The notes: generated from the sequence alone by a model not told the origin. DNA of 64,000 nt from Candidatus Bathyarchaeia archaeon (GCA_049516875.1 JBEKSS010000014.1:1-64000), one strand, 5' to 3'; counted from the first letter of the stretch, positions 3,846-35,133 are shown. Numbers and translations: made by a program.

Positions 3846-4806
3846 TTATTTGCGTTTTTTGAATAGTTGTATTCCTTCGATTGTTGTTATGTATTGGAAT
3901 CCTGCTTCGATTAGTTGTGTTGCTTCTTTGGCTGTTGTTGCTCCTGAGCATGTCCACTCGTCTTCGTTTAGGTTTAGTAGATGCATGTATTTCTGCGTGG
4001 TTTCAAGTTTCTTGTGTCCCATTTGTACCACTACGAAGTATGGGTCTTTTGTGTCGTTGAGTTGTTTGGAGCAGAAATAGTGCCTAAAGTCGTATAGTCT
4101 GATGGTGTGGATTGATGGGTCTTTGAGATCTTTGACGAGTTTGTTTCGCATGGCTCGATAATATTTTCCGTAATCTTCAGGGTCTCCCTTGAATAATTTG
4201 TCGTTCAGATTCAGATTGTTTTTGATTATCCATTCTTTGATGGATGCTGTGAGTTGTTGCGATATTTTTAGCGTTCTCGGATTGCCTTTTTTGGCGGTTA
4301 TCGGGTTTTACAGCTCTGTGTTCTAAGTCAATGTCGTTTACTTTTAGTCTGCATAGTTCTATTGGTCTTAGTCCAGTTTCCATGCTTAGGTTTAGCTTAA
4401 TTGATGTTGGTATCCTTGTTTTGGCTATTAGCATGAGCAGTTTCTCTTTTGTCGGTAGCTTGATGTTTTTTGCTTCTGGAAGATACAGGGGCATAGTCCA
4501 TTCTATGTTGTAGAATTTGCAGTATTTGTTGTAAGCTATGCAAAGATTTCTCTTGTAGCCATTTGATGTTTTGATTTGGGCTATAAAGTGCTTCGCGGCT
4601 TCGGGTTCGCTCAGGCTTGTGTGTTTAGCTAAGAAGTTTAGTGCTTTTCTCGTGAAGTTAATTGTGTAGTCGCTTTTGTTGTCGTTCTTCATTTGAATGA
4701 GAACGTTAAGCGTCGGTGCATTGTTTGGGATTACGTGCTGGTTGATTGATGGTGTGGTTATGGCTAAACGTTCAGCGTTGTCTCTGCGTTGCATTTTAGG
4801 CTTCAC
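3846..4806 (-). pseudogene. Tyrosine integrase A, catalytic part, frameshifted
   Basis: ETGLRPIE in ORF 4177-4806; LYDFRH, MGHK, TQKY in ORF 3846-4151; removing one A in GTAAAACCC (~4307) joins them. Confidence 0.9.
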
Positions 4807-4809
4807 TTC

Positions 4810-5010
4810 TCAGAAGCGTGCGCTTGATGTGGTTCGGTTCCGTTGAAGGGTGATGTACGGGAATTGAAGGCTGGCGTGTTGGTCGTAACCCGCCTTTTGT
4901 GAGACATGGCTTGTACGCTTAAGACCGTAAGTAGCGCGGGCTAGTTTCTCCACCACACTTTGTAGCTCTTCAGCAATCCCCATCGTCTGAGTCTTCGACT
5001 GTACCCGCAT
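4810..5010 (-). CDS. Integrase N-terminal fragment int(N)-A containing att-encoded QKAGYDQHASL
   Basis: Same frame as ORF starting 4806, separated by one TGA at 4810-4812. Confidence 0.65.
   Translation of the reverse strand: MRVQSKTQTMGIAEELQSVVEKLARATYGLKRTSHVSQKAGYDQHASLQFPYITLQRNRTTSSARF
4867..4900 (-). repeat. att copy A: 34-bp exact duplicate of the rnpB 3' end
   Basis: aaggctggcgtgttggtcgtaacccgccttttgt, identical to 34813-34846. Confidence 0.95.
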
Positions 5011-5065
5011 AAAAGTCTATTCTAATAGGATTTGTTAACGCGCTAACCGGTCTAGACGAGGGCCA

Positions 5066-5659
5066 GTGGGCGCTATGACAAGTCTTATTAATCTATTTTC
5101 ACCTATTAAATCTAAACTGGTGAACAGATTGAATTCAATCCAAAGTGTGGGAAGATACAAGAAAGACGAGATTGTGAAAAAGGAAATGTACAAGCTTCTT
5201 AGAGCAAACCCAGAGGGAATTGGCTCAGAGGAATTTGTTGAGAAAACCAGGGCGACAACTAAGGTTAGTCGTGGAAAGATTTTTTCTATGATAAAGAAAT
5301 ATGAACAACTTGGCATTATGAAGACGGAAAGAAACCTTGAGGACAAACGTCATGCGACTTATTTTCCAGATTTGCAGAAAGTGAAGACTGAACAAAGATT
5401 CTTGGAAGACGTGGAATTCATTCAAGCTCTACTGTCAGAGCCTAAAACAGAATTTGCAGAATCTGAAACAAGATCGTCTGGAATCCGTGTTAGTGTGGGC
5501 ATCTTTACGAATTGGGGTGAAAAGCCATCGCAGAGCCTAGAGGATCAAGTAAAAAGCATAGCCAAGCAATTTTCCTCTAACTATGATAAGCTGTTAGGTA
5601 AAGATATGAAGGTAAGGCCATCTACAAAACTCGCCTTCATAATAACGATGGAATCATAA
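5066..5659 (+). CDS. Winged-helix DNA-binding protein, divergent from integrase A
   Basis: VSRGKIFSMIKKYEQLGIMKTERNLEDKRHATYF resembles a MarR-type wing. Confidence 0.65.
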   Translation: MGAMTSLINLFSPIKSKLVNRLNSIQSVGRYKKDEIVKKEMYKLLRANPEGIGSEEFVEKTRATTKVSRGKIFSMIKKYEQLGIMKTERNLEDKRHATYFPDLQKVKTEQRFLEDVEFIQALLSEPKTEFAESETRSSGIRVSVGIFTNWGEKPSQSLEDQVKSIAKQFSSNYDKLLGKDMKVRPSTKLAFIITMES

Positions 5660-5732
5660 CGAGGATGTTAAGCCATAAATGAACAAGACAAAGTATACAC
5701 GTGCACTTCCGTATCTAGTAGCACGCGCGCTG

Positions 5733-5770
5733 TTGGTTGGTTGGATAAAACTTTACCCCCAAACCCAAAC
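5733..5770. repeat. Island palindrome family, copy 2
   Basis: ttggttggttGGATAAAACTTTACCCCcaaacccaaac. Confidence 0.85.
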
Positions 5771-5929
5771 CTGCAAATTCGTGACTTAGGCTTCTTCAAC
5801 CTACTGTGCTTGGTTCCTGGCTCGTTGAATGTTTTTCAGATTCTTTTTTTCGGGATGTCTCGTTTGAAGGCAGGAGATAGCTGATAATGACAACTGCAGT
5901 TCCAAGAGCCAGCATAGGCGCTCGCGCTT

Positions 5930-6422
5930 CTAGTTTGCCGAGCGAACGTGCCTCCTTTGCGGCGTCGAAAAACTCTGTTCCGCAGTCAGGACACGATTCG
6001 CTGTACCAGTATACCTTCCTGCCACACTTACTGCATTTTCAGCGGCGTTCCTGCTGGTTCAGCCACTCTTGGACGCCATTGCGTTTGAGTGATTGAAGGT
6101 TGGCTGGGCAAAGGGTTAGATGGGGGAGGTTATCCGCTTTCGAACGTTTCTCTGCCAACTCAACAATCATGCTACATGGCATATCTTTGCATTCAAAGCA
6201 AGAAGTGAGGGCTTTCTGTTTTGCGCAATCTCTGAACTGGCACTGCACACACGTGGGCGACACGTCTCCAGAAACGCATTCTTCGCACCGAATCTGCTCC
6301 TTAGAAAGGCCATTCTCCTCCAGATAACGGATAAGCTTCTGGTCGTTGTCCTGGAATGCACGATATATCAGACATGCACCGCAGTAAATGCCGCATACGT
6401 CCACTAGGTTCACATCGAACAC
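5930..6422 (-). pseudogene. DUF3795-like Cys-rich protein with premature stop
   Basis: CGIYCGAC...C..C; TGA at 6039-6041 where Trp is expected, followed in frame by KCSKCG...CPDCG. Confidence 0.7.
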
Positions 6423-6504
6423 AAGACTACCTCCATAGACTCACGAACGGCATTCCATTTAACCTTTGATCCTCAACGTGGTAAAGTGTGCGTATCCGTC
6501 TTTT

Positions 6505-6535
6505 TTGGTTGGGTTTGGATAAAACTTCGCCCCAA
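6505..6535. repeat. Island palindrome family, copy 3 (variant)
   Basis: ttggttgggtttGGATAAAACTTCGCCCCaa. Confidence 0.75.
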
Positions 6536-6649
6536 CTGGTTTGGTAGTGGAGAATTTCTTTAATGACATTGATACTTCGAACTCGATAGATGGGAAACTT
6601 GTGGAGAGCTGCAGATTATTGTTCTTACTGATGCTGACGAGTAACTGTC

Positions 6650-6787
6650 TTATCGCGCGCGCTCTCTGGACTGTTGTCTTTCAAGTCTGGCAAGCTTTTT
6701 ATCCTTACGCTGCTTTTTTCTTTCCTTCTTCTTCTGAGGTTGAGGCCGTGTTCGATCTTGTACTGATGTTTCTCCTTTCTTCTTCAT
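6650..6787 (-). CDS. Small basic protein (45 aa), KKLARLERQQ family
   Basis: MKKKGETSVQDRTRPQPQKKKERKKQRKDKKLARLERQQSRERAR; paralog at 15923-16048. Confidence 0.55.
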   Translation of the reverse strand: MKKKGETSVQDRTRPQPQKKKERKKQRKDKKLARLERQQSRERAR

Positions 6788-7254
6788 GTAACCACCTACT
6801 TCTCACAAAAGAAAAAGACTCGTCCCCTTTCTTCATGAACTATTCTTTTCTTCTCGTACATGGCTTGTCCATTCTCCGCAAGCGCGTAGCGCGTTATTTC
6901 TTACCTTTGTTATATTCCGCAGGGAGTTCAATGTTCCGTTTCTCTTTCCTCTTCAGTTCCTTATCCCTCTGCAATTCCATGTGCTGTTTATGATCTATAG
7001 CTTTCTGTTTCTTACCTTTGGGCACAATTCATCCTCCTCAGCAAGTTAGATTTTGTTCTTACGTCTATAAAAAATATGCGTGCCTTATGCCTCAATTGCT
7101 TTCTACTCTTGGAATGCCCGATGGTCTCGTCAGAATTCTTCCTCTGAAAGCTTTTTGGGAGCGCTGCGAGTCTGCGGAGGCTTATCTTATTAGCGCGCGC
7201 ATTCGATTTACCCAAAACAATAAATGTCCTACCTGATTACGCTTTGAGCGAGGT

Positions 7255-7599
7255 TTGCTTACGAAGCCCACATGGAATCAGAAGGAAGTGCTTCCAATGG
7301 TGAGGGATACCATCTACGCTTTGTGCAAGAAGAAGGGCGATTGGGTCACTAAACAGGAAACGGTGACTGCTCTTCTTGAAGATCCGCGGATTTCGAAATC
7401 TGCAGACGAGGCGTACAGGCTGCAGAAGACGGACAAGACACATATTTTGGGAAATATGGTGAACTGGCTGGATTTCTGGGTTACTAGGCTCGAGGAAAAA
7501 GAGCAGACGCCAGATTGGGCTCGTGAACTGGCTACAGAGATTCTGGACAAGTTTGAACGGAAGAAAATTGACAAGAAATGGGCTTACAAGTTGCGCTAG
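7255..7599 (+). CDS. Hypothetical protein
   Basis: 114-aa ORF with protein-like composition, bounded by GCGC tracts. Confidence 0.55.
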   Translation: MLTKPTWNQKEVLPMVRDTIYALCKKKGDWVTKQETVTALLEDPRISKSADEAYRLQKTDKTHILGNMVNWLDFWVTRLEEKEQTPDWARELATEILDKFERKKIDKKWAYKLR

Positions 7600-7649
7600 A
7601 GCATGGAGCGCGCCTGTTCTTTCTCCTTGCTGTTGCGCGCGCTACGTCT

Positions 7650-7680
7650 GGTTTGGGTTTGGGATAAAACTTTACCCCCA
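7650..7680. repeat. Island palindrome family, copy 4
   Basis: ggtttgggtttgGGATAAAACTTTACCCCca; related variant at 7866-7900. Confidence 0.85.
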
Positions 7681-8063
7681 AGAGAGTTTGTAGGTTTAAA
7701 AGCCAATGTTCGCATCGAATTTCCAAATCCTCCGATAATAGAAAAAAGGCGACGGCGTGGCAGGAAACGCTTCAACTACTTCCAAATCGATTAGCGCTCA
7801 TATTATTTTTCTTTAAAACACTCAAAAAACAGCGGTAACTTCTATCAATCTTCTAAGCCAGTTTTTGGTTTTGCGGAAAAGTTATATCCCAAACCCAAAC
7901 CTTGACATTTTCTCCAGGTTGCCCACGATCTTGCTATTCTCAGAGATTATCATCGGCTGATGCATGTGCAGCCAGGGTAGATACACTGCCTTCATAACTA
8001 AGCCCAGCTAAGTTCGGAATCCAAAACATAATGTTTCAGGAACTCAAGCATGGGAAACAATAA

Positions 8064-9410
<1,347 letters not shown>

Positions 9411-9671
9411 ATAGCCATGTTTGTCCTACCTCCCACTTGTTTTTTTTCATCTATTGTGATGTGGCTTTGTAATGTTGCAATGTAAGTCTTCGATTTTGTA
9501 GAACAGTCGCGCGCGCTTAGAACAGGTTTACAGACGGATACTAGTGAATAGAACTTCCTGAGCCAAGTTTTTCTGTTCTACGCTTTCGATATATTACTCA
9601 TGAGCCAGCTTCTGATCTTGGGGAAAAGCTATAGCTGAACCGATAGTAATTGGCTTGAATGGTGACTTGGT

Positions 9672-10316
9672 TTGCTTGAAGGGAAGAATGTGAATTTGAG
9701 AATTGTAGAGAAAGAGGATTTGCCACTAATTGTAGAATGGTTTAACAAACCTGAGATCTTCGGCGAATACAACCCTCTGATACAGATGTCCAGAACAGAA
9801 ATAGAGAAAGATTATGGGGAAAAGAAACTTGAACAAACCGAATTTTTCATTGAAGGGAAAGATGGAAGCAGAATTGGTTACATATGGCATTTCAACGTAA
9901 TGCATCCTGCAGGAAAGATATTAGAAATAGGTTATTTCTTGGTTCCGAGTGAGAGAGGCAAGGGCTACTGCACTGAAGCTACACAGTTAATGGTGGACTA
10001 CCTGTTTCTTTCAAAGAACATAGAGCGTATTCAAGCCCAGACTGATGTGAGAAATGTGGGTTCACAGAAGGTTCTGGAAAAAGCAGGTTTCAGGAAAGAA
10101 GGAATAATTCGCAAAGTCTTTTTCCTCAGAGGACAACTCAGAGATGCTTGTTTGTACAGGATCCTCAGAGAAGAATGGAAAGAACCAAGCGCGCGCACGC
10201 GCACTATTTGGTTTTGTGGAATCGGTGGTCTTCAATGTACAAGTCCACTTTTCCAGAAGCTTCTACGACGAACTCTGCCGCTATGCGAACACCAGCATAA
10301 GGTATGTAGAATTTAA
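9672..10316 (+). CDS. RimJ/RimL-type GNAT; natural C-terminus replaced at a GCGC junction (~10190)
   Basis: ERGKGYCTEA, N.GSQKVLEKAGF..EG; after LREEWKEP the frame runs antisense into the neighbouring gene. Confidence 0.85.
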   Translation: MLEGKNVNLRIVEKEDLPLIVEWFNKPEIFGEYNPLIQMSRTEIEKDYGEKKLEQTEFFIEGKDGSRIGYIWHFNVMHPAGKILEIGYFLVPSERGKGYCTEATQLMVDYLFLSKNIERIQAQTDVRNVGSQKVLEKAGFRKEGIIRKVFFLRGQLRDACLYRILREEWKEPSARTRTIWFCGIGGLQCTSPLFQKLLRRTLPLCEHQHKVCRI

Positions 10317-11616
10317 GGTTTTCAAGTTTGTCGCTTTCGGGAATCAGCGCTAAACTGAACTCAGCTCCCTTCTCGTTAGATTCTATGAACAGCAACCCTC
10401 CTTTTCTTGCCACCGAAGTCTTCACGATCCCCTTGTAGCCTGCATACTCGCCCGCAAGCATGGCCATTTTCTTTTCAATCTCAAAAACCGGAATCTCCTT
10501 GAACGGATCTTTACCCATGAGAAGAGTCAAGGCCACGGACGGAACTAGCCCCACCAACTCGCGACCGCCAACATTGCACGCATACACGACCCCCACGTTC
10601 AAATCTGTCAAGAACGACAGATTGGCGCTCGACGCTCGAGTAGAACCGTCGTGACCAATAAGCACGTGTCCAAAGAAATCATCGTTCATGGTCCAACCGT
10701 AACCGTACCATAGTTTCCCGAAGTGTGTGGGGATAATACTAGCCCAGTTTGTCTGTATGTGCGGTTTGTGCATTTCTTGCATCAATCCTGAATCTAGAAG
10801 TTTAGCGTCCCCAAAGATTCCGTAGTTCATGTTTGTAACTAGATAAGTTGTCAACTCCATGACCGAACTCATCAATCCTCCGTCTGCATAGGATAATCTG
10901 CTAACTGGGTGTATAGTCGGCGTCGCAACGAGAGTTCCATCCTTCTTTTCCACAAAATAGGGGGTCATAACGTCCTGATCCTTCTCAAACTCCTCCTTCA
11001 AGAATGTGGACCTATTCATCTTCAAGGGTTTCAGTATCTTATCTCTAACATAAGACTCGTAACGCATCTGACTTACCCTTTCAATGATCATTCCTAGAAG
11101 CTCATATCCCTCATTGAGATAGAAGAACCTGATTCCTGGCTCGGCTGCCACCTCGTCCTTCGCACCGTTAACATGCAGCAATAGGTCCTCAAAGCTGCTG
11201 AACGGAACCCATTTCTCACGAAGCTCCATGAGCCTAGAAATTTCAATATCTGCCCCGCTCAAGTCTGGAATACCTGAAGAATGGGTCAACAAATTATGAA
11301 TGGTAATCGGGTTCTCCTCCTTCCCAACTTTGAACTCGGGCAAATGCTTCTTAACGGGGTCTTTCAGGCTCAGCTTTCCCTGCTGCACGAGTTGCATTAT
11401 GGCCAATGCCGTAAAGGACTTGGTGCATGAACCCACTCCATAAAGCGTGTCAGGAGTAGCCGGAGCGTTGTCCTTCAACCGCCTAGCCCCAAAACCCCTT
11501 GCATAGATAACATGGCCATCCTTCACCACTGCCAGGCTTAAGCCAAGCACATGATCTCGCTGCATTGCCTCTGCAACAAAACCCTCAAGTTTTTCCGCAA
11601 ACTCGCCAGAGGACAT
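10204..11616 (-). CDS. Serine hydrolase, beta-lactamase/Pab87-like peptidase family
   Basis: SCTK (SxxK), YLN (YxN), HDG, LLTHSSG. Confidence 0.9.
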   Translation of the reverse strand: MSSGEFAEKLEGFVAEAMQRDHVLGLSLAVVKDGHVIYARGFGARRLKDNAPATPDTLYGVGSCTKSFTALAIMQLVQQGKLSLKDPVKKHLPEFKVGKEENPITIHNLLTHSSGIPDLSGADIEISRLMELREKWVPFSSFEDLLLHVNGAKDEVAAEPGIRFFYLNEGYELLGMIIERVSQMRYESYVRDKILKPLKMNRSTFLKEEFEKDQDVMTPYFVEKKDGTLVATPTIHPVSRLSYADGGLMSSVMELTTYLVTNMNYGIFGDAKLLDSGLMQEMHKPHIQTNWASIIPTHFGKLWYGYGWTMNDDFFGHVLIGHDGSTRASSANLSFLTDLNVGVVYACNVGGRELVGLVPSVALTLLMGKDPFKEIPVFEIEKKMAMLAGEYAGYKGIVKTSVARKGGLLFIESNEKGAEFSLALIPESDKLENLKFYIPYAGVRIAAEFVVEASGKVDLYIEDHRFHKTK

Positions 11617-11836
11617 GACAATCGCACCGTCTAACCCGAAATGAACTCAATGTGCGGATAAATCTTGCGGGAACTAGCAGCGCCCGCTTGTTGACTTAGC
11701 TCTCTTTTTTCTGAAACTGATTTAGCTCTCAATTTTCTTCATAAGGCCGCGAAAAGGCAGCCTTTTTGGTTTTGCGGAAAAGTCTTTTTTTGACCGTTTG
11801 ATTTTACCGTTTTTCAGTTCTACGCTTCCGCACTTC

Positions 11837-12334
11837 TCAATTCTGTTTAGGCTTATCCTTTCCAACAATGGGTGCGAGCGGCATGACATACATGTATAAT
11901 AGTGCATTGACCACGACTACGATTGCCAAAACCCAATACATTTCTAGGAACACTAGAAAGACACATATCCATGATGTCTGTAATCCGCAACCAGCTATAA
12001 ACAGACGCTCTGCTCGCTCCACCAAAATTTGACGAGGATTTGCCGCAGGCTTCCCTGTTCTCTTATCTTTCACCCTACTTAGTGTGTGAGCAGGTTGAGA
12101 AGCAATAGTGCAAAACGTGGAACTGAAACCGAACAAGACTGCACCCATAACAGAAAGAAGAATGGTCAATTCAAGAAGAAAACTCGTTTGGACTCTAAAA
12201 GCTGTGAATAGTGTCGTTTCCAGCACAAATTCTGTAATTGCAAAACCCGCCCAAACTAAAGCATTGTTGCTCCACCCGCATGCTATCTCTCGATATTCCT
12301 CTTCCCTCTTTTCTATCTCAGACGCACAAACCAC
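11837..12334 (-). CDS. Hypothetical membrane protein
   Basis: About four hydrophobic segments. Confidence 0.55.
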   Translation of the reverse strand: MVCASEIEKREEEYREIACGWSNNALVWAGFAITEFVLETTLFTAFRVQTSFLLELTILLSVMGAVLFGFSSTFCTIASQPAHTLSRVKDKRTGKPAANPRQILVERAERLFIAGCGLQTSWICVFLVFLEMYWVLAIVVVVNALLYMYVMPLAPIVGKDKPKQN

Positions 12335-12780
12335 CTTTCATTTTGTTGTTACCTGCAAATCTTTTATTAAATTAACCTATTGACAAAAACCGCTTGAAGC
12401 ACGGATTAGTTAACGTCTTCCTGTTCTACACTTTCGACATATTCCTTAAGAGTCTCGGTTTTCTCATTGTTTATTGGAGATATCTATGTCAATCGGGAAT
12501 ACGGGAGATATCTCCACTTAGTCTAATTGGCTGGGTTCGCAATTCTGGGCCGTGTGTGTCTCCCTATTTTTATTTCTCCATATATATTTTTTACACCTTA
12601 ATTTTTTCCAGGATCCTTAGGGAAAAAACCAGGAGTCTCTGTCTCAAATATATGTGTGTGTGCCAGTGTGTGTTCCGAGGTATAGGTATATAGTAGTAGG
12701 TAGGTAGTGGTAGGTGGTAGGTTCTCCCTTTTCCCTCGTTCCCTGCGATGCGTCCAGCAGGTGTGCTGCGCTGCTCTGCT

Positions 12781-12805
12781 GGATAAAACTTTACCCCAAC
12801 CAACC
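12781..12805. repeat. Island palindrome family, copy 5
   Basis: GGATAAAACTTTACCCCaaccaacc. Confidence 0.85.
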
Positions 12806-24881: not shown

Positions 24882-24913
24882 TTCATAGTTGACTGGCAGG
24901 GTCTGAAGGAGAC

Positions 24914-25280: not shown

Positions 25281-25326
25281 TTGGTTTGGTTTGGGGTAAA
25301 GTTTTATCCCAAACCCAAACCCAAAA
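25281..25326. repeat. Island palindrome family, copy 7 (longest arms)
   Basis: ttggtttggtttGGGGTAAAGTTTTATCCcaaacccaaacccaaaa. Confidence 0.9.
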
Positions 25327-25365
25327 ACAGAAAAGTGTGTGTTACGAAGTTATGAGTGACGCGGA

Positions 25366-26052: not shown

Positions 26053-26092
26053 CAAAAACGATCCTGTATTGAGACTCAGCGCACGCGCTATC

Positions 26093-26368: not shown

Positions 26369-26602
26369 CGCGTGCGTCGGTTTTTCTTTTTAACGTTTGG
26401 TCTCGCATGTACATCAACCCACATTCCTAATCGTTTCATTGACGAGGCGACAATATGCCTTTCCCGACTGAGCAACTTTTTAGGACTGCGGGGAGCGCGC
26501 GCTGTGCGGGCGACTTGTTGCTCTGTTGGATTTCCGCGCTACTTTACTGAGCGTTAAAACGGCGGGTGTTTATAGCGTTCTGTTGTTTACTGTTGTTTGT
26601 TG

Positions 26603-26647
26603 TTTGTTCTGTTGTTGTTTGTTCTGTTGTTGTTTGTTCTGTTGTTG
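26603..26647. repeat. Tandem repeat, 3 x TTTGTTCTGTTGTTG
   Basis: Three exact 15-bp units. Confidence 0.9.
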
Positions 26648-26897
26648 TTAGCGTGTGTTAGTTAATTCGTTCCTGTTAGCGAGAGTATAGCGAGTTGTTT
26701 GTGGCGTTATTGTTGCTGTTCCTTTGGCGTTCGATTGGCGTTTTGCCTATTTTTGTAGCGCGCGCGACCTTGTTGGATATTTTGTATCAGTAAAAAGTTG
26801 CGAAGGAGGCGCACCCTGAGCGGAGCGAGGGGGAAAGGCTTATGTCGCCGAGGATTTCGAAGCGCGCGCTATAATACTTTTGCGCGCGATTTCTTGC

Positions 26898-27488
26898 TCA
26901 TTTGAGCAGTTGGGATATTTTTGACAGTTTTTCCTGAGTCTGGTTTACTGAATCCACGATTTGTCGGTATTGTTTTGGATACTTCTTTGCGATTGTTATG
27001 AACTGTTTTACCACTTGGGGGGTGAATCCTGTGCGCATTTGGTTGGCTAGGATGGAATCGATGTCGGTTTGTTCTATTTTTCCCTTGGTTAATGCTGCGA
27101 GATATAATACCTCGAACGCGTTTTCTCCGAGAATCGGTGTGGTTTCTATGAGAAATTGAAGGTTAATGTCTTTTGGATAAAATTCACGTGCTCTGATAAG
27201 AATTGTTTGGGGATCTGCTCCTCTGCTTATTGCGAGGAATATGCCTAGTTCGGTAAGCCAGAAAGACGGGTATTTTGTGCCGTGATATTCTTTAGTTGTT
27301 ACGCTTTTGATCAGTCCTTTCTTCTTCAGTGTGTCGAAAGCAATCCATGTGGATTTGTACTGCCCGTTGATTTGCTTCATAGTTTCATTAATGGTTTGAG
27401 CGTTGTTCCTTGCCAGACTCAGAATTACACGCTCCTGCAAGGGAGGAAAGTCACGTGTCTTCCTATTTTGCTTAGACATATGTCTCAC
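26898..27488 (-). CDS. Winged-helix domain protein, divergent from rep operon
   Basis: YKSTWIAFDTLKKKGLI...FWLTELG. Confidence 0.7.
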   Translation of the reverse strand: MRHMSKQNRKTRDFPPLQERVILSLARNNAQTINETMKQINGQYKSTWIAFDTLKKKGLIKSVTTKEYHGTKYPSFWLTELGIFLAISRGADPQTILIRAREFYPKDINLQFLIETTPILGENAFEVLYLAALTKGKIEQTDIDSILANQMRTGFTPQVVKQFITIAKKYPKQYRQIVDSVNQTQEKLSKISQLLK

Positions 27489-27617
27489 TGAGCTTAGATA
27501 TGTTATATCTCACCATATATAAAAGTTCTTGCCTAAAACTACTCGGTGAGAAAAGTTGTTTGAAAATTCGAAACGGAAAACTGCGCACGCTGTGCTCCCT
27601 TTGGGAGTTGATTTTCT

Positions 27618-27818
27618 ATGGCTGAGGGTAAGCTGCTGAACTGTATCTTCTGGGATGGTGTCGCTTGTAAGCATCGTAAGTCTGAGACGGTGAACATGAT
27701 GGTTCGATGTTGGAGCTGTCGCCAGTTCAAGCGGTTTGTGAGACAAATGGATGATGCTGATGCGAAAATCATGGAGGAAAATGAGAAGAGGCGTTCGGAA
27801 GGTGACGGTCTTGGTTGA
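27618..27818 (+). CDS. Small Cys-rich protein upstream of rep
   Basis: C..C...CWSC; GGGAG before ATG; overlaps rep start. Confidence 0.6.
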   Translation: MAEGKLLNCIFWDGVACKHRKSETVNMMVRCWSCRQFKRFVRQMDDADAKIMEENEKRRSEGDGLG

Positions 27819-28836
27819 CGCTGCTGTCCTCCGATTGGTTCGCTATTTTCTGGTTCTCCTTAGGTTGAACCCTCAGTTGATGGAGAATGCCTATTGGTAT
27901 CTGCCCGTTCTGGACGATGGCCACGATAATTATGCGCAGGTGGGTCATAGCCCTAGCGTTGTAACTCCTTACTGTTGCTATTTCAGGGGTTGGAAGGTCT
28001 GTCGTGAAAAGGACTTGCATAAGGGTGTGGTTGTGAACGGTGTTGATTTTACGGATAAATCGGCGGTTTCCCCTTCACATCTCTGGTGTAAGAATTGGCA
28101 TTGCCCTAAGTGTTTTCTTCACGGTGCTTGTGTCGTTGGTGCCCGTAGGATTGAAGACCGCCTGACTGCCTTCGTTGAGCGTGGACTTGGTAAGGTCGAG
28201 CACGTAGTTTTTTCGGTTCCAAAGGCTTCTCAGGACTTACCATTGGAAGTCTTGTTCAAGATGCTTCCGTCAGTGGCAAAGGACAGGGGCGTGTCTGGTG
28301 TCTCAATTTTTCATGGGCGGTACATAAATACTGAGCTTGGCGGCCTTGCATGGAGAGCACATTTCCACGTGTTGGGTTTTGTTGACGGTGGCTTTTACCG
28401 TTGCAGGACTTGTGAACATGAGCGCAGTGCATGTGCTAGCTGTGACGGTTTCAAGGGTTGTGAAGTTCGAGGCTTTGCCAAAGACGGGTGGATTGTCAAG
28501 GTTGCTGATGAACGTTTGAGCATCTTTGGTACGGCGTGGTATCAGTTAAATCACCATACGGTAAAGCTCGGTTTTCGCAGGGTGCACTCTGTCAGATGGT
28601 TTGGTAAGTGTGGCAACAGGATGCTAAAATCCAAGTACCATAGGTCTGGTGCTGGTTGCTCCTGTCCCGTTTGTCGGGCTGCTGGTCACGAGTCGGTAAT
28701 GGATAATGGCGGATACTGGGGTAAACGTTTGCCTGATGATGTCTCCGATCCGCGTTACAAGTCTGTTTACGCTGTGCCTGATTTGGATGAAGAGGGCTTG
28801 CCAAACTTTGCCGATGGAGGTGATAGACTTGGTTAA
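27751..28836 (+). CDS. Rolling-circle replication initiator (HUH endonuclease); start probably ~27802
   Basis: Motif I HVVFS, motif II HFHVLG, motif III YQLNH, plus several CxxC. Confidence 0.75.
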   Translation: MMLMRKSWRKMRRGVRKVTVLVDAAVLRLVRYFLVLLRLNPQLMENAYWYLPVLDDGHDNYAQVGHSPSVVTPYCCYFRGWKVCREKDLHKGVVVNGVDFTDKSAVSPSHLWCKNWHCPKCFLHGACVVGARRIEDRLTAFVERGLGKVEHVVFSVPKASQDLPLEVLFKMLPSVAKDRGVSGVSIFHGRYINTELGGLAWRAHFHVLGFVDGGFYRCRTCEHERSACASCDGFKGCEVRGFAKDGWIVKVADERLSIFGTAWYQLNHHTVKLGFRRVHSVRWFGKCGNRMLKSKYHRSGAGCSCPVCRAAGHESVMDNGGYWGKRLPDDVSDPRYKSVYAVPDLDEEGLPNFADGGDRLG

Positions 28837-28987
28837 GGTCCAAATATGTCCTTTCGATGGCTTACCATGCGAGTTTGTGGATTCTTGCGATGATGCTATG
28901 GTCTTGCTCTTAGAGCGTGAAGGTCTCAAAGGCTTCGATACTGAGAATGGTGAACATTGTTCACGCGCTGTTATTCGGCTAAAATGA
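28829..28987 (+). CDS. Small Cys-containing protein downstream of rep
   Basis: GGAGGTGA before TTG; CPFDGLPCEFVDSC. Confidence 0.55.
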   Translation: MVKVQICPFDGLPCEFVDSCDDAMVLLLEREGLKGFDTENGEHCSRAVIRLK

Positions 28988-29029
28988 GTTTCGTACCAAG
29001 CGCGCGCTCTAATCTTCTCTTTTTTTCTC

Positions 29030-29824
29030 TTAGCGCGCCCACAAGCGCCATTTTTTGGTTTCAGACAAAATAGTTTTGCCCAATTCAGTAAAGTAGTATT
29101 CTGGCTGACCGCCATACACTTTTTTCCTGAAGGGAATCGGCTTTGCACTTCTAATGACTCCGAGATTGATAAGGTCACGGGCGATTCTTCTCAAGTCGTT
29201 CTTCTCACAGCTTTCATGGTAGAGACCATACTCTCCTTTGCGGCTTGAATCGAATGCACATAAGTCAAAACCCCTATCAACATATCCTCGGACTACTTCC
29301 AAAAATGAGATCATATCAATGTCCAATGCGCCCAAAACATTTCTGACCATTAAGTCTCTCGTTAAGTCCACTTGTTTTTCGGCATTTATCACAAGCTTTC
29401 TTATTTTGTCTCTTGAATTTTTTGCATTCTGTGTGGAAAATTTGTTCCATCTGAGGTGCCTAATATCAAAAGAAATATTTTCTGACTTTTCATCCCTTAC
29501 GATGATTACCTCCTGTGGCAGACGGATGGCATGAGCTATGCCCAGTTCGTACATAACATTTGGATTTGGTCGGTCTTTTTCATCATTCGAAATATCGAAT
29601 AACAACAACTTTGCTCTGCCGACTCCTTCCAAAACATCAATAGGAATCGAGTCGCTAACAAGTCGCTCTTTTGTACGATATGGTTTCAGACCGCATGAAA
29701 GAATAGCAGGTTTAAAGATATCTTTCCATCGTTGTTCGAATTGAGAGGAGAAAGGCATTGCCACAAATACTTCCATTGTCCTATCGAATGACCTGAACAA
29801 GTCCATGTAAGTTTTTGGGTACAT
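29030..29824 (-). CDS. Nucleoside 2-deoxyribosyltransferase/TIR-like domain with wHTH-like C-terminus
   Basis: VFVAMPF, DIS....NPNVMYELGIAHA, FDIRHLR. Confidence 0.75.
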   Translation of the reverse strand: MYPKTYMDLFRSFDRTMEVFVAMPFSSQFEQRWKDIFKPAILSCGLKPYRTKERLVSDSIPIDVLEGVGRAKLLLFDISNDEKDRPNPNVMYELGIAHAIRLPQEVIIVRDEKSENISFDIRHLRWNKFSTQNAKNSRDKIRKLVINAEKQVDLTRDLMVRNVLGALDIDMISFLEVVRGYVDRGFDLCAFDSSRKGEYGLYHESCEKNDLRRIARDLINLGVIRSAKPIPFRKKVYGGQPEYYFTELGKTILSETKKWRLWAR

Positions 29825-29907
29825 TCCTATTGCATCATTCCAATTTCTTGTACCTTACGTGGAACTTTCCAAACAAATTGGTTTCACCAGACATTTGATT
29901 GAGTGCC

Positions 29908-30501
29908 TTATTGTTCTTGTTGGATTCTCAGCCAGTCTTTTATCAGAAGCTTGAACCTTACTATCTCATCATTGTCCAGTTCGCAGCTATGGGCGATAAT
30001 GTTTCTAATGTTATTGAATTGACAGAGTGTGTCTTGAACTGCCTTTCTGCTTCTGAGAATATCTGCAAAGTCATTCCAATTTGAGTTGAATATGTCGGTT
30101 AACTCACCGAAGTTTGTATAGGATAAGTTATCATCAGACCGAATCGACATTGCAGTTTCTCTTTCCTTTGCTTGCAGTTTCTTGACGTTATCTTTTATAA
30201 CCACTGGAACTTTTTTTTCCCACCAATCGGTGCCGTGTTTTTCTCTCAGAACGTCAGTGATGAGCTTACGTACACTGTTCTCCATGCTGAAATATAATAC
30301 ATAGAAATCTGCCATTTTGCGAGCTTTCTGAAGGATTTCGAGTTCAAATAGGTCGGTGTCTACTAGTTCGTCTTTCTTCATTTGTTGTGAATGCCCGATT
30401 TCGATACCTGACCTTTCCAATTTCGCGAGTTCACCTTCAAGCATCAAGTTCTTCATTCCAAAAACTAGGATTTGTTTGTTTCTTTCATTCTCGTCTTTCA
30501 T
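29908..30501 (-). CDS. Swt1-like HEPN domain protein (predicted RNase)
   Basis: ENSVR, WW, FGEL..I, RNIIAH (RxxxxH). Confidence 0.8.
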   Translation of the reverse strand: MKDENERNKQILVFGMKNLMLEGELAKLERSGIEIGHSQQMKKDELVDTDLFELEILQKARKMADFYVLYFSMENSVRKLITDVLREKHGTDWWEKKVPVVIKDNVKKLQAKERETAMSIRSDDNLSYTNFGELTDIFNSNWNDFADILRSRKAVQDTLCQFNNIRNIIAHSCELDNDEIVRFKLLIKDWLRIQQEQ

Positions 30502-31112
30502 GTTAGGAGGTGCTCCTTCAGAGCTTTGAAGATAGCATTGAACACTTCGACGTCGTTTGTTGCAGGAAGGTTGAGATTTATCGTATAGGATATTCCGAGT
30601 TTCTCAATCGGTTGCTGCTTCGACTTTAATTGAGGCTCTAACGGTTCCTGTGAAACAGCTGACGTTGCTTCTGTTATTTCTGTTGTCTCAAAATCAGCTA
30701 AGCTGCACAGTGCTAAAAAAGTACTCACCACTTTAGGCGTAACCTTATCGTCTGAGGGAGTGCCTAGAACTGTATTCAGTTTGGCGATTATTTCATCTCT
30801 TTTGAGCTTTTGTGCGTACTCATTAGCGGCAAATATCTCTTTGTAAGCCTTCTTCACTTGTTGAGCCATTACAATTTTGGATTTCATTGGGTCGCGGTAC
30901 TCTCTGTAGGCAGGGGTTGGGCCATTAGCTTCATCAACAAATCCGAGTCTCTTAAGAAGTGCGATAAAAGGTCTAAAACTTGATGACTTCAAACCGAGTT
31001 TTGTGTATATGAAATCGACTGTGATTTTGGGTGGCACCTGTGCTTCCGTTATTCTTTTGAAAAACTCTTCTATTCTACCGTAAGCGTCCACATAAGGAGG
31101 ATAAGTGACCAA
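30498..31112 (-). CDS. DUF5343-like protein
   Basis: PY...LKRLGFVD..G.PT..Y..YR, YTINLNLP...FNAIFKALKEHL; ATGA overlap with HEPN gene. Confidence 0.75.
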   Translation of the reverse strand: MVTYPPYVDAYGRIEEFFKRITEAQVPPKITVDFIYTKLGLKSSSFRPFIALLKRLGFVDEANGPTPAYREYRDPMKSKIVMAQQVKKAYKEIFAANEYAQKLKRDEIIAKLNTVLGTPSDDKVTPKVVSTFLALCSLADFETTEITEATSAVSQEPLEPQLKSKQQPIEKLGISYTINLNLPATNDVEVFNAIFKALKEHLLT

Positions 31113-31497
31113 TTTTATTCTCCGTTATCTCGTTAGTGAACTAACACATAAGAGGTTTTTGGTCAGTATGTCTTTTGTTCAATTTTGTGGTCTGAAACCA
31201 CGTTCATGTAGTACGCGACGTCGGTTCTTTGAGCACATCGTCTGGAACGTGCGCGCGCGCATTGATGTTGGGTCGATTCGTAAGTTTCATAGAAAATGAG
31301 CAATTAGAAGCGTGGATGATGGCGAAAATGGAAAGATTGATAAAGGGGCAGCGAGTATTTGTGAGGAGTTTGTTTCGTCAAGGGTGACGCTTGCATGGAC
31401 GCTGTCTTCGCGGCCTAGGCCGTTATTGCACTGTGTTGGTAGCCTAGTCTATAGGTCTGTTTGGCGCCACCAATCTTGAAACCAGGAGGTTTCCATT

Positions 31498-31767
31498 TTG
31501 GGTTTGATTTCAACTTTGAGAGATGAGTTTGCGTTTCTTCGCGGCAACATTCTGGTCATGATGACCAGTTGGTTAGTGATGAACTTTGCTGGCGCTGTTC
31601 CCAACACTTACTATTCTCTCTTTGTCCTGGGGTTAGGCGGCACGCCCTTCATCATAGGCTTAATGCAGTTCTTTTCATACCTGGCTTTAGCTTCGACGCA
31701 GTTTCCAGGGGGTTATTTGGCAGACAAGCGCTGGAGAAAGAACCTCGTGGTGAAGCGCGGGCTTTAA
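31498..31767 (+). pseudogene. MFS transporter N-terminal fragment
   Basis: Ends just after motif A (GGYLADKRWRK) at AAGCGCGGG. Confidence 0.75.
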
Positions 31768-31779
31768 AGGGGAACACTG

Positions 31780-33063
31780 ATGAGCAAGAATAAGTCAAGA
31801 GATGAGCTGGACCCTAAACGAAGATCTCATTGGTTTTCAAGTATTTCTTTGAAGGCGGGGTTCTCAGGCTTGTCCTCCCAAGTGTATATCCTAGTGTTTC
31901 TGGGCTTTCTGTTCTCACTTGGAAATAACATTGCTTTCCCCTACCTTGCCATGTTCTTGGCAGGAAAAACTCAAAACGGGGGTTTAGGGTTTGCCTCGTC
32001 ACTCGTGGGTTTGATGCTTATGACAGGAGGATTCACTTCCACCTTTGCACTCCTGTTCACTGGAAGCTTGTGTGACAGATTTGGCAGAAAAATAATGATG
32101 ATGTCCTCACTGATTCCACAGATTCTGCTGACCATCGGCTTTGCATACGTTCACGCATATCTCGAATTCCTGCTGCTGTATGCAACACTTGGAATTGTAA
32201 TGGCCTTTTTCAACCCAGCTTACGGTGCCATGATCGCGGATCTCGTCCAGCCAGAAAGAAGGGAACAGGTCTACGGCCTAAATTACATGGTAGGCAACGT
32301 TGGTTTTATGGCTGGATTGCCCATCGGGGGTTTAATTGCAAGCATGAGTGGCTTCTCTGTGCTATACTTCTACGCTGCCATTTTTGTATCCGCAGGGGCA
32401 GCTGGCCTTGGTCTACTGATCAAGGAATCTAAGCCTCTTGAGGTCGCTAAGGAAAAGTTTTTTTCCGATGTTACCCCGATCTTTAGAGACAGAGTTTTCA
32501 TACTGTTTTGTTTCATGGGAGCCTTGACAATTGTCGTTTACTCACAACTGTACAGTTTGCTATCCGTCTACACGGAGTACCTTGGCTTTGAGCCCTACGT
32601 CTTTGGCTTTCTCTCCTCAATAGCTGGTGCGATGGTGGTGACCCTCCAAATCCCAATCAGATTGGGAACTGTGCGAATAGGTCCGACAAAAGCATTCATA
32701 ATCGCTGAGACACTCTTTGGTGCGGGATTAATCTGTTTAATGTTTGCTGCGAACTTTTCCCAATTCTTAGTAGCCATTGCAATTCTGACCATTGGAGAAA
32801 TAATCTTCTTCCCTGCAAGCTCAGCTTTTGTTGCTAATCTTGCTCCAGCAGATATGCGGGGAAGATACTTGGCTCTGATGGGACTATTCTTTGGAATAGG
32901 AGGTGCAACAACAGAACTGACGATCTTCAGTATTTATGGATTGTTGGCTAACAAAAGCTTGATCTGGGGGATTTGGGGAACGCTTGGATTCGCGATTCTC
33001 CCTGGCTATTTGATGTTATTCAAGATGGCTAAGAGACACAGATCAATTCCGACGCGGCCCTGA
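31780..33063 (+). CDS. MFS transporter
   Basis: GSLCDRFGRK, about 12 TM segments. Confidence 0.92.
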   Translation: MSKNKSRDELDPKRRSHWFSSISLKAGFSGLSSQVYILVFLGFLFSLGNNIAFPYLAMFLAGKTQNGGLGFASSLVGLMLMTGGFTSTFALLFTGSLCDRFGRKIMMMSSLIPQILLTIGFAYVHAYLEFLLLYATLGIVMAFFNPAYGAMIADLVQPERREQVYGLNYMVGNVGFMAGLPIGGLIASMSGFSVLYFYAAIFVSAGAAGLGLLIKESKPLEVAKEKFFSDVTPIFRDRVFILFCFMGALTIVVYSQLYSLLSVYTEYLGFEPYVFGFLSSIAGAMVVTLQIPIRLGTVRIGPTKAFIIAETLFGAGLICLMFAANFSQFLVAIAILTIGEIIFFPASSAFVANLAPADMRGRYLALMGLFFGIGGATTELTIFSIYGLLANKSLIWGIWGTLGFAILPGYLMLFKMAKRHRSIPTRP

Positions 33064-33198
33064 GTCAAGGCTAGTCATCTATGAAAGGTGCTGGAACCCT
33101 TAACCTATTATGTGGAAACTGCAATGCGCGCGCGTTAGAAAGCGTTATATGAAAATGAACTCGATTAAAAGTCGAGGATAGCGCGGGCGACATTTCGG

Positions 33199-33780
33199 GT
33201 GGAGGGGCACAATTTGAGACTTAACTATTTAGGTTTTATCGGAGGCATATTGGCTTTCATCAGCTTGGTGTTACCGTGGTGGGCTATGAGCATTTCGGGT
33301 TCAGCCATGGAAATTAACGTCTCTGACGAGGTTACTCTGTACCTATACCAAACGAGAGTGACCATAATAGGTTTATCAGTATCCGCTTCAACGAATCTTC
33401 CTTGGTATTGTTCGATTGCCTTAGCATTTGTGGTGTTAGGCGGCTTGCTGGGCTTGGCAGGTAGTGTCATTGCTAATGGGAGAAGGATTGTACTTTCACT
33501 TGGCGCCATACTTGCCTCGTTTTCGGTTATCATATTCGCTGTAGGATTGCAAAACCAGATTTCAAATGGGTCTTTGGTTTCGGGTTTGCCAACAGGAGTA
33601 GGTTTGTTCTCCAGTGGTGCATACGGCTATGGAATGGATTACTCGTCGTACCTGTCTTTCGGTTTTTGGCTGGCCTTGGTTGCCGCGATTATAATGTTTG
33701 TCGCACTAACGAGAGAGCGCATGCTAGAACCCGCTGAGACAATAATACCACCTCAACCTTCTCCCCCTGCGCCGACGTAG
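33199..33780 (+). CDS. Membrane protein
   Basis: Four TM segments, LPWW, GFWLALVA, Pro-rich tail. Confidence 0.75.
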   Translation: MEGHNLRLNYLGFIGGILAFISLVLPWWAMSISGSAMEINVSDEVTLYLYQTRVTIIGLSVSASTNLPWYCSIALAFVVLGGLLGLAGSVIANGRRIVLSLGAILASFSVIIFAVGLQNQISNGSLVSGLPTGVGLFSSGAYGYGMDYSSYLSFGFWLALVAAIIMFVALTRERMLEPAETIIPPQPSPPAPT

Positions 33781-33897
33781 AATCGCGCGCGCTGTTGTTG
33801 TTTTGAGTTTTTGCGAGTTGGAGCGCGAAGCGAAGCTGAGCGCGACATTGTGGTCAGGAATGACATTGAATAGAAAAAAAGGTGGGCTGTTTGTGTC

Positions 33898-34812
33898 TTA
33901 TTTGCGTTTTCGGAACATCATTATATTTTGGGGCGTTGTCAGAATGTATGTCCATCCGTTGTCTATTAGTTCGCCTGCTTCTTTTTCGTCTTTGGCTATT
34001 GCATGGTGGTAGTTTTGGCTTTCTTCGTCAAATTGAACTATGTGAGTGTAAACCATTGTTGAGTTTATGTTTCGGTGTCCTAGTCTTGCTTGAACTTCGA
34101 TTAGGCTTTTGGTTTCGTTATAGAGACGTGTGGCGTGGTAGTGTCGTAGAGTGTGGAAATGTATTTGTTTGAGTCGTGGGTTGTTTAGTTTTTCAGCGAG
34201 GCGTTTCTTTTGATAATTGAACATGGTCCGAGTGAAGCCTAAGCGGGTGTTGCTGAATATGTAATTGTTTCGTTTCGGTAATGTGTTGAGTCGTGCAAAT
34301 AGCTTAGCTGAGATTTTTACTTCTCTCGGTTTGCATCCTTTTTCAGGGTTGTTGCATTTGAGTGTGTTTTTTTCTTCGTCTATGTCTGTCCATTTGCATT
34401 GCCATAGTTCGCCTATTCTGAAGCCTGTTTCTTTGAGTGTTTGGAGTGCAATGGAGACTTTTTTGCTCGTTCCGCTTATGAGTGCGTCTATCTCTTTTTC
34501 TGTTGGAACGAATGGGAGTGTTTCATTTTTGGGATAGAGTGGTGGTGTCCATTGGATACCTTTCATTTTGGCGTATTCGTTGTAGGTGAAAACTGCTAGA
34601 TTCTTGTGTCCGTTGGACCATTTGCCGTTTCTTTTTATGTAGAGTTTTACGGCTTCGGGGTCTGCTAGGTTTACGTTCTCTTTTATCATGTGTCGTAGAA
34701 TCTTGTATTTCGTTTCGATGGTTGCGTCTGCGAAGGCTTGTTTTTCGCAATGTATCATAAACTCTGCGAGGTCTGTGTTTGTGATGACGTCAGAGCAGGC
34801 GGGTTCCTTTGA
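33898..34812 (-). CDS. Tyrosine integrase D, catalytic part int(C), frame open back through the att core
   Basis: ETGFRIGE, PEKG, HTLRH, LGHR, TMVY; upstream in frame KAGYDQHASLSKEPACSD, first ATG at 34758. Confidence 0.92.
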   Translation of the reverse strand, partial: SKEPACSDVITNTDLAEFMIHCEKQAFADATIETKYKILRHMIKENVNLADPEAVKLYIKRNGKWSNGHKNLAVFTYNEYAKMKGIQWTPPLYPKNETLPFVPTEKEIDALISGTSKKVSIALQTLKETGFRIGELWQCKWTDIDEEKNTLKCNNPEKGCKPREVKISAKLFARLNTLPKRNNYIFSNTRLGFTRTMFNYQKKRLAEKLNNPRLKQIHFHTLRHYHATRLYNETKSLIEVQARLGHRNINSTMVYTHIVQFDEESQNYHHAIAKDEKEAGELIDNGWTYILTTPQNIMMFRKRK

Positions 34813-34846
34813 AAGGCTGGCGTGTTGGTCGTAACCCGCCTTTTGT
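34813..34846 (-). repeat. att copy D, the 3' end of the intact rnpB
   Basis: Identical to 4867-4900. Confidence 0.95.
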
Positions 34847-35133
34847 TTTTTGTGGCATTCGGCTAATCGGGCTACCCGCGCCTTCCGGTAGATTCTTCAT
34901 CGGCGTCTGTTTGCCCTTTCCACTTGCAGGACGGCCGTTTCACCGTTTCGCACCCTGCATTCTCGACAACTTAGCATGTGTCATCGGCATATGCCGGGCG
35001 GACGTTTCGTTTCTGCTCCGTAGCCAAGGTTCTCACCTTACGCCCTTGCAGGCGTTGCAATTCTACGCGTGGGCGGAGTTTCCTCAAGCCTTCCAATATG
35101 AGGCTCGAAAGCCACACACCAACTCGCCAGCCC
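34814..35133 (-). ncRNA. rnpB: RNase P RNA
   Basis: GAGGAAACUCCGCC (35085-35072) pairs with ACAAAAGGCGGGUUA as P4 with bulged U; P1 GGCUGGCGAGUUGGU/ACCAACACGCCAGCC; P2 UGUGGC/GCCACA; about 320 nt. Confidence 0.95.

Follow-up and report, generated by a model that had tools for sequence, protein, structure and literature searches.

Integrases of the SSV type, as carried by SSV1, SSV2, pTN3 and pT26-2, have their attachment site attP within the open reading frame (ORF) of the integrase gene itself, which is split into int(N) and int(C) parts on integration, with int(C) abutting the rebuilt RNA gene (PMC8371274; PMC7253208). A direct repeat arises through duplication of the target's 3′ portion, an intact gene must be supplied in trans for excision, and integrated copies accumulate and decay. 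The 2021 review ties such suicidal integrases to PF16795, to the catalytic signature R...KxxR...Y and to one monophyletic superfamily, and its conclusions also tie them to hyperthermophiles (PMC8371274). Here we describe a locus that resembles these systems in apparent layout but differs from them in target, enzyme and host: at least four mobile elements, integrated site-specifically and in tandem, occupying positions 1-34840 of a 64,000-nucleotide stretch of DNA (the window in what follows) from the genome of a peat/wetland Bathyarchaeia archaeon, and beginning at rnpB, the gene for the RNase P RNA. The window corresponds to the opening 64 kb of C14, a contig of a 2.43-Mb metagenome-assembled genome (MAG; 20 contigs, 5.4% contamination), and MAGs and metagenome contigs form the data basis throughout.

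The array also invites comparison with the genomic islands and prophages that occupy tRNA and tmRNA genes at their 3′ ends (Islander/TIGER). As described in PMC4383910 and PMC12884075, these use a tyrosine integrase with a crossover in the 3′ part of a small, conserved, structured RNA gene, the gene being restored by the element, a displaced 3′ fragment being left at the far end and tandem arrays being formed at a single site. All of this is true of the rnpB elements too, but their target is RNase P RNA and their int ORF runs through the core, not beside it. Phage phiEf11, whose attachment site in ffs (4.5S RNA) is presented as novel in a 2025 report, likewise has as its attB a non-coding RNA gene other than tRNA or tmRNA; it differs in being bacterial, in using another RNA and in having its attP core 74 nt from the end of int, so that the gene stays unsplit (PMC12540744). 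From the SSV-type systems, the rnpB elements are set apart by integrases that match PF00589, have HxxR, are nearest to XerA and show no PF16795, by a target that is rnpB and not a tRNA gene, by hosts of peat and wetland and not hyperthermophiles, by a much shorter N piece and by the use of three reading frames through one core.

To our knowledge, the structured RNA genes known as integration targets have until now been those for tRNA and tmRNA, with ffs new only in 2025. RNase P RNA joins this short list. In full-text literature searches, attachment sites in rnpB or RNase P RNA were nowhere described, a result that is provisional as most subscription journals and supplements lie outside such searches; targeted look-ups in PMC8371274, PMC10848311, PMC12884075, PMC12540744, PMC13573593 and Streptococcus genome papers likewise gave none.

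The attachment site and the array

A sequence-only reading that preceded this analysis had proposed an intact rnpB at 35133 to 34814, whose last 24-34 nt recur as direct repeats at 26126, 19862 and 4867. Covariance model RF00373 indeed places a complete, untruncated rnpB at 34820-35127 (196.6 bits against a gathering threshold of 84, E = 5e-57, model positions 1-288), on the minus strand, as are all features below unless stated otherwise. The repeats were found too, on the same strand. With at most one mismatch, the 26-mer of the rnpB 3′ end occurs four times, always on the minus strand, at 34815, 26128, 19862 and 4869, and identity to rnpB is exact over 34 nt at 4867-4900, 26 nt at 26126-26151 and 24 nt at 19862-19885. 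No copy was seen in 100 shuffles. The whole 2.43-Mb genome holds the same four copies only, so that the repeat is absent from the genome outside the array, and a reversed-pattern control gave none.

As read from the RF00373 alignment, the repeat comprises the 3′ strand of P4, the 3′ strand of P1 and 5-7 nt past the end of the rnpB model; the P4 3′ strand GGCGGGUU pairs with AAC(U)CCGCC. Repeat search, joined for the first copy by the covariance alignment, defines four att cores: core 1 at 34813-34846, attL of the element next to rnpB (element A), with the P4 3′ strand GGCGGGTT; core 2 at 26128-26153, joining int(N) of that element to an 18-codon stub; core 3 at 19862-19887; and core 4 at 4867-4900, the copy with 34 nt identical to rnpB. 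The 7-8-7 core GGCGGGT/TACGACCA/ACACGCC is a candidate for the site of crossover.

Reading away from rnpB, and writing C and N for the integrase-domain and N-terminal sides of elements A to D, the order is rnpB-core-C(A)...N(A)-core-C(B)...N(B)-core-C(C)...N(C)-core-C(D)... This junction order matches the product of repeated integration at a rebuilt rnpB end, the rnpB 3′ end being rebuilt from a copy of the core borne by the element, and element A, adjoining rnpB, would be the newest arrival. Element A (26128-34840; 8.7 kb with both flanking cores) is the most complete, with int(C), a Rep-like gene, cargo and int(N), and is the only complete element of the window array. Beyond it lie element B (19862-26153; 6.3 kb), which is decayed, element C (4869-19887; 15 kb) and element D (1-4894), which runs off the start of contig C14, with the far end of the array and the native flank outside the assembly. 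The older members of the array have lost their integrase and Rep-like genes and keep only cargo.

Linkage to rnpB in relatives and an empty site

A scan of one genome per species identified 33 related loci, 32 of them titled Bathyarchaeia or Bathyarchaeota; one distant integrase relative (L031, 31% identity) is on a contig titled Ignavibacteriaceae. The association of integrase and duplicated rnpB 3′ end implied by the sequence-only reading recurs in other Bathyarchaeia: in 11 of the 13 loci with at least 66% identity, the match is immediately preceded by an rnpB in the same orientation, whose 3′ end extends over its beginning. The two exceptions are L006, one of the inner junctions within an array beginning at an rnpB 10 kb distant, and L015, an unsplit form with a zinc ribbon. 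Relatives at 36-46% identity lie away from rnpB, and at six loci a tRNA gene is found near the match. Core searches in 15 of these genomes revealed arrays on one contig, with four cores in G001, three in G002 and two each in G003, G005 and G010. A gapped DNA pattern of the N side added 120 metagenome loci, and a whole element of 3.7-8.8 kb, from rnpB to the far core, is present on seven contigs (L107, L111, L123, L125, L138, L150 and L179).

Within the genus of the window, rnpB was found in four of five genomes, and in all four an integrase ORF is open from the core behind it. These integrases are of three types: type 1 in G000 and G318, type 2 in G316 and type 3 in G317. Types 1 and 2 are 31% identical, and the type-3 integrase, which matches PF00589 at 1e-15, is recognised by BLASTP against type 1 at an E value of just 0.015. 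None of an even sample of 300 other genomes of the class has a type-1 match at E ≤ 1e-80, and the type-1 clade is therefore narrow.

The MAG G010 holds both a filled and an empty site. Its contig C10 carries attB, that is, rnpB, core and flank, and contig C11 carries rnpB, core and int(C) followed, 5.7 kb on, by the N side, core and the same flank (attL and attR). The three sites have a common block of ~31 nt and near-identical flanks, and the pair is precise. Target-duplicating repeats, an integrase at one end and a precise empty site are thus all found, as expected of a site-specific integrative element, and the covariance match, the confinement of the repeat to the array, the linkage in relatives and the empty site bear out the earlier proposal that the rnpB 3′ end (P4/P1 3′ strands) is the attachment site. 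The elements may still be active at present. A compact attB of 23-31 bp in an essential, highly conserved gene, together with natural integrases for it, could make a genetic tool for Bathyarchaeia, for which we know of no genetic system.

Several observations at these sites deserve mention. The sequence AACCCGCC, 9-10 nt past the core (34790-34806 in the window), exactly complements the P4 3′ strand GGCGGGTT. The sequence is kept in type-1 elements (L005-L014, L018) regardless of frame and is seen again, after an oligo-T run, in the flank behind the last core of G317 (L191); because it is conserved across frames and present behind that last core, it probably belongs to the native flank of rnpB and to an att site that extends beyond the core. 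The unrelated type-3 PF00589 integrase of G317 (contig C1; L186/L191) has 397 codons and a SAM-like N domain, and reads the rnpB core in the frame GLRPTRQ. The far N side of this 8.6-kb element is homologous to that of element A in the window and is in the frame GYDQHAS, and the element looks composite. Core-like sequences are also present away from rnpB (L044, L049, L051, L063; protein P0006), where they share another, conserved left flank, GGGAGAYRTCWCC..., and L082 has the same right flank as L051. No RNA family was detected by Rfam at E ≤ 0.01 at the non-rnpB sites of L038, L044, L049, L051, L057, L061, L063 and L082. The core-like sequences with the other left flank may represent a second class of N side or a secondary attB.

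Is the integrase gene split?

As the sequence-only reading had it, three core copies are followed by an integrase catalytic domain and three are preceded by a short ORF. PF00589 is found at 33898-34758, at 18950-19837 and in a broken gene at 4177-4806 plus 3846-4151. The first of these belongs to int(C) of element A (33898-34836), the C part of a type-1 integrase (E = 5e-24) with 312 open codons from the core in the frame GYDQHAS. Its sole and first ATG, at 34758, lies within the first helix of the core-binding domain, and in full-length relatives that helix has further protein before it. The second is the C part of a type-2 integrase in element C (18950-19882; E = 3e-17), with 310 open codons from the core, and the third, in element D, is a type-2 pseudogene (3846-4806) with an in-frame TGA 26 codons past the core and a frameshift between 4177 and 4151. 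Nothing but the 18-codon stub follows core 2, and this stub looks like the beginning of a type-2 int(C). On the other side of the cores, the N-side ORFs are the int(N) of element A (26093-26368; 91 aa), which has a conserved MNEE start at 26242, that of element B (19821-19955; 44 aa), reading into core 3, and that at core 4 (4810-5010; 66 aa). It had further been stated that all four copies read GYDQHAS. This is so for the three N-side ORFs and for the integrase next to rnpB; the integrase at 19862 reads VTTNTPA, and that at 4869 does use the GYDQHAS frame but is broken first by the TGA and then by the frameshift. GYDQHAS was rejected as a conserved protein motif, other clades reading the same DNA as VTTNTPA or GLRPTRQ; because the core is read in different frames in different clades, the conservation belongs to the RNA gene and the att site.

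In the scheme that we favour, each element would have its attP, a 23-31-bp copy of the core, embedded in the 5′ portion of the ORF for its own tyrosine integrase. While the element is circular, transcription and translation of int would begin at a promoter and a start codon located on the N side and continue across the core and a short linker to the domains for core binding and catalysis. Recombination with rnpB would remake an intact rnpB from the element's copy of the core and leave the displaced 3′ fragment at the far end, so that int(C) would abut rnpB with neither promoter nor start, parted from a short int(N) of mostly 11-35 codons before the core. Later arrivals would enter the rebuilt rnpB end, placing the newest element beside rnpB, so that at inner junctions the int(N) of a given element would meet the int(C) of its older neighbour, and excision would require integrase in trans. 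We put the probability that attP lies inside the int ORF and that the gene is split into int(N) and int(C) on integration at roughly 0.7; it is the most likely arrangement because the frame is open through the core, no conserved start follows the core and the N and C frames are coupled.

The int frame is open through the 23-bp core in every clade, with GYDQHAS, VTTNTPA and GLRPTRQ all in use. Between core and domain there is no conserved start codon, and in L007, L009/L056 and L055 there is none at all, and full-length relatives (55-62% identity) extend N-terminally. The N sides, in nearly every case, have a start-codon ORF open to the core in one frame only. To compare the two halves, frames were assigned automatically, the N frame being that of the longest start-to-core ORF and the C frame the one holding the first conserved integrase motif. 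Within the same element, N and C frames agree in 10 of 14 cases, or 11 of 17 with the addition of G317 (no), L150 (no) and L179 (yes), which exceeds an expectation of one third (binomial p = 0.008). Adjacent N and C parts from different elements agree in only one of nine (Fisher p = 0.014). Rows dropped from the comparison were window element B and G001-2, which have no C part, and the core-4 junction of the window, where the motif lies behind the TGA; if that junction is included, agreement between elements is 2/10.

Further evidence comes from the N sides themselves. The MNEE start, ATGAAYGARGAR, is present in 8 of 81 distinct N sides and is open to the core in all eight, with all three frames used. 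A GGAG-like motif 7-12 nt upstream of many N-ORF starts was noted by eye, without a control. Among the 120 database proteins listed, three (P0006, P0022 and P0028) are in-frame ORFs of N side, core and integrase, with N tails of 8-19 residues; the N piece that is cut off is mostly 11-35 residues before the core. The earlier proposal of a split int(N)/int(C) gene is in this way supported, by statistical frame coupling and by an ORF open through the core, rather than proven.

A number of findings weigh against this overall picture of the elements. Frame coupling fails in 6 of the 17 elements (window C, G002-2, G003, G005, G317 and L150), for which we offer the explanation that they are composites arising via internal deletions. 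The N-side pieces are short, of low complexity, variable and poorly conserved. The ~20 nt just before the core are conserved as DNA and read in different frames; they were rejected as a conserved peptide, given the different frames and 1-nt indels, and because it is the DNA that is conserved while the frames differ, they are taken to be a site. No circular or episomal copy was seen: the viral contigs searched gave no match by protein or core pattern, and terminal overlap, the sign of circularity, is absent from all metagenome loci of the set L065-L144. An internal Met close to where the domain begins is present in several int(C) ORFs, and in many genomes rnpB provides an in-frame ATG (MPQKTKG-GLRPTRQ... 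or MKNLPEARVARLAECH...GYDQHAS), and because of both, integration may not silence int. Some frameshifts may be sequencing errors, given the MAG and metagenome source of the data. Finally, the assignment of the Rep-like protein, discussed below, was made without a Pfam or PDB match.

Alternative readings

It is unlikely, in our estimation, that these are classical unsplit integrases in which attP lies just upstream of, or overlaps, an untranslated 5′ end of int and translation begins at an internal Met downstream of the core. Were this so, the N-side ORFs would be incidental readings of a purine-rich, T-poor spacer, and integration at rnpB would be real without the integrase being 'suicidal'. 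The internal Met is found near the domain start in several clades (MIHCEKQ in the window, DMNKNG in L039 and L041), 84 of the 120 database proteins listed are called from such downstream starts, and the short variable N pieces, the six discordant frame pairs out of 17 and the lack of a free form among viral contigs and metagenome loci all fit. This Met is not conserved, however: it is missing from the three sets of loci without any start named above and, where present, often falls within the first helix that aligns to full-length relatives. Same-element N and C frames also agree far more than adjacent unrelated halves do, all eight MNEE starts are open to the core, and ORFs with N, core and C parts in frame exist.

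We regard it as improbable that the gene is split but rescued, with read-through from the strongly transcribed rnpB and an in-frame start inside rnpB giving an N-terminally swapped, active integrase capable of self-excision. The conserved GAATGCC of rnpB (34846-34860) does supply an ATG seven codons before the core in the frame GLRPTRQ, and five of the proteins listed start MPQxTKG-GL(R/Q)PT (P0015, P0023, P0037, P0058 and P0074). The frame GYDQHAS has a start 21 codons upstream in many genomes, and 12 of 17 tabulated rnpB-proximal int(C) are open over their full length. Against this, in the window the frame that is used contains a stop ahead of the core and lacks a start there (up = 20), the frame VTTNTPA is usually without a start, L107 has a stop three codons upstream, and rnpB is constrained as an RNA, so that its ATGs may be incidental. 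As an addition to the split-gene scheme, the idea that a replacement start codon supplied by rnpB keeps some integrated integrases alive is a bolder one. A practical consequence of the ATG is that gene callers predict MPQxTKG-GLRPTRQ... integrases starting inside rnpB.

That there is no array, the repeats having arisen by segmental duplication at the 3′ end of rnpB or the MAG assembly being a chimera fused at a short repeat, is scarcely credible: the MAG is in 20 contigs with 5.4% contamination, and Logan contigs break at cores, with none of the pieces listed from the aligned runs bridging the rnpB core, but the same architecture is seen in many independent assemblies with an integrase at every proximal core, G010 has its precise empty site, among the contigs listed for two further samples, some read across cores 2 and 3 with no difference from the window (X3 record 5, X5 record 9), seven sequencing runs contain at least 83% of sampled words, and the repeat, at only 24-34 nt, is below read length.

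Family placement of the integrases

The sequence-only reading saw here an SSV-like family retargeted to rnpB, and this has to be abandoned. Types 1 and 2 match PF00589 only, even at E ≤ 10, with no PF16795, and type 3 scores 13.6 bits for PF16795 against a cut-off of 27, compared with 58 bits for PF00589. The catalytic R, HxxR, H and Y are present, TGFRIGEL, HTLRH and LGH...VYTH aligning to XerA; box II is HTLRH in type 1 and GLRH in type 2, that is, HxxR or xxxR with no Lys, and not KxxR. Of solved structures, those of archaeal XerA (5hxy and 4a8e) match best, over the core-binding domain as well as the catalytic one. The 15 PDB matches at E ≤ 1 include no chain of SSV1 integrase, whose catalytic domain is among the solved structures. 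Among NCBIfam models, NF040815 (archaeal XerA) is best, with 99.4 and 93.9 bits. These scores are far below the cut-off of 220 and, unlike XerA, the rnpB integrases are borne by elements next to att repeats and are not the chromosomal dif resolvase.

The nearest full-length relatives are zinc-ribbon integrases of Bathyarchaeia (P0078, P0086, P0088 and others), with 55-62% identity over residues ~20-312. Unlike the rnpB integrases, these are unsplit, with an N-terminal zinc ribbon like that of IS1/IS1595 and no core peptide. A zinc ribbon before the same core-binding and catalytic domains is also seen in P0094-P0120 and in L015, and the latter, the one zinc-ribbon locus examined, is not at rnpB.

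Judged by their sequences, the rnpB enzymes would work like SSV-type integrases while lying outside that family, and because they lack SSV-type sequence features, the split arrangement looks like one of independent origin. The earlier interpretation was therefore right about the target, probably right about the split gene and wrong about membership of the SSV family. If the split-gene reading is true, it contradicts the single origin, within one hyperthermophile-bound superfamily, given in the 2021 review (PMC8371274), and it provides a second, independent system in which to test the evolution of the paradoxical suicidal strategy. For the wider proposition, we consider the case evenly balanced: that self-splitting integration arose again in Xer-like PF00589 integrases of mesophilic Bathyarchaeia, two of them mutually unrecognisable by BLASTP and all three frames being used to read the core, and that small rolling-circle replicons, forming a large family so far undescribed, carry them.

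A Rep-like backbone protein

Besides the integrase, element A and all five complete metagenome elements with which it was compared encode a Rep-like protein of ~335 aa. Because the complete elements, at 3.7-8.7 kb, share an integrase and this protein, they are probably small rolling-circle replicons. The gene in element A (27751-28836, plus strand) was recognised by homologues, by HxH, Tyr and Cys motifs and by a structure model. In 68 sequences, H194 and H196 (the HxH), Y254 and several Cys are invariant, and 1122 cluster representatives were found at E ≤ 1e-3. The protein belongs to no Pfam or PHROGs family, a Pfam scan of six members giving weak zinc-ribbon noise only.

The structure model has a pLDDT of 91; a first model, from six sequences, reached 48.7 and was discarded. 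Foldseek searches of the PDB with the model gave no match at E ≤ 1e-3, just generic alpha/beta sandwiches. The BFVD gave seven matches at E ≤ 1e-3, with TM values of 0.25-0.33, and the only entries with a name among its top 50 are three replication initiators of Microvirus. Language-model (Atlas) features gave 0.96 to Rep_1 clusters (PF01446). Taken together, we think it rather likely that the protein is an HUH rolling-circle replication initiator, and treat it as a candidate for that function. A large family of small replicons is indicated, one that is absent from the viral collection searched and whose Rep-like protein is outside Pfam and PHROGs families.

Gene content of the elements and their setting

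Scans against Pfam-type families assigned the cargo of element A as a HEPN_Swt1 protein (29908-30501), a DUF5343 protein (30498-31112) and an MFS transporter (31780-33063, plus strand). The adjoining HEPN_Swt1 and DUF5343 genes (29908-31112) are possibly a toxin-antitoxin or defence pair carried as cargo. Element B has no int(C) and no Rep-like gene, and encodes NosD-like, FMN reductase and TIM-barrel proteins. Element C, in which a Rep-like gene was not found, carries a GH1 glycosidase, a GNAT protein, a Pab87-like serine hydrolase, an ABC-2 transporter pair and a DUF3795 protein. No Rep-like gene was found in the assembled part of element D either, and the cargo of B, C and D is ordinary-looking. 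Virion genes were detected neither by Pfam (30 window ORFs) nor by PHROGs (8 ORFs), and the window has no tRNA genes. Base composition was tried as a marker of the array and dropped, the gap between the array (GC ~0.40-0.47) and the remainder of the window (~0.42-0.53) being too small.

A sample survey of the sequencing runs identifies the hosts of the array as peat and wetland Bathyarchaeia. The runs (n = 24) were used as Logan contigs, and four of them were aligned to the window. Logan contigs of these four yielded no usable joints across the array, and gaps in contig cover are uninformative. One joint, 19885 to 34810, was rejected as evidence of excision, its shorter side being 21 letters long and sitting on the repeated core. 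In runs X6 and X7, summed contig depth at 18768-19401, 20036-20669, 23206-23839, 25108-25741 and 34618-36500 is 10-300 times that of the rest of the array; these segments are common to other, more abundant members of the community.

The N-side regions contain three further features. A conserved non-coding motif of 20 nt, AGGCATATTGTC(T/G)CCTCGTC, lies upstream of N-side ORFs at 26441-26460, with a second copy at 20008-20027. It is also found in L111, L067, L070, L118, L121 and L141, 40-290 nt upstream of the N-side ORF, and is often followed by the complementary GACGAG, giving a hairpin; motif and hairpin may be an element operator or a replication origin. A micro-ORF of ~33-35 aa, MRDQTLK...EEIRYxQLWAEIE, is present in the window (26310-26417) and in L050, L045, L048/L116 and L123. 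Its end lies 55-174 nt short of the core, and it runs into the beginning of the N-side ORF; in L006, the stop of the micro-ORF and the start of int share the sequence ATGA, and in element A of the window its tail is fused into the 91-aa N-side ORF. Lastly, a short tandem repeat, (ACAACAGAACAAACA)n, lies at 26590-26665, between a transcriptional-regulator-like ORF (26898-27488) and the int(N) region.

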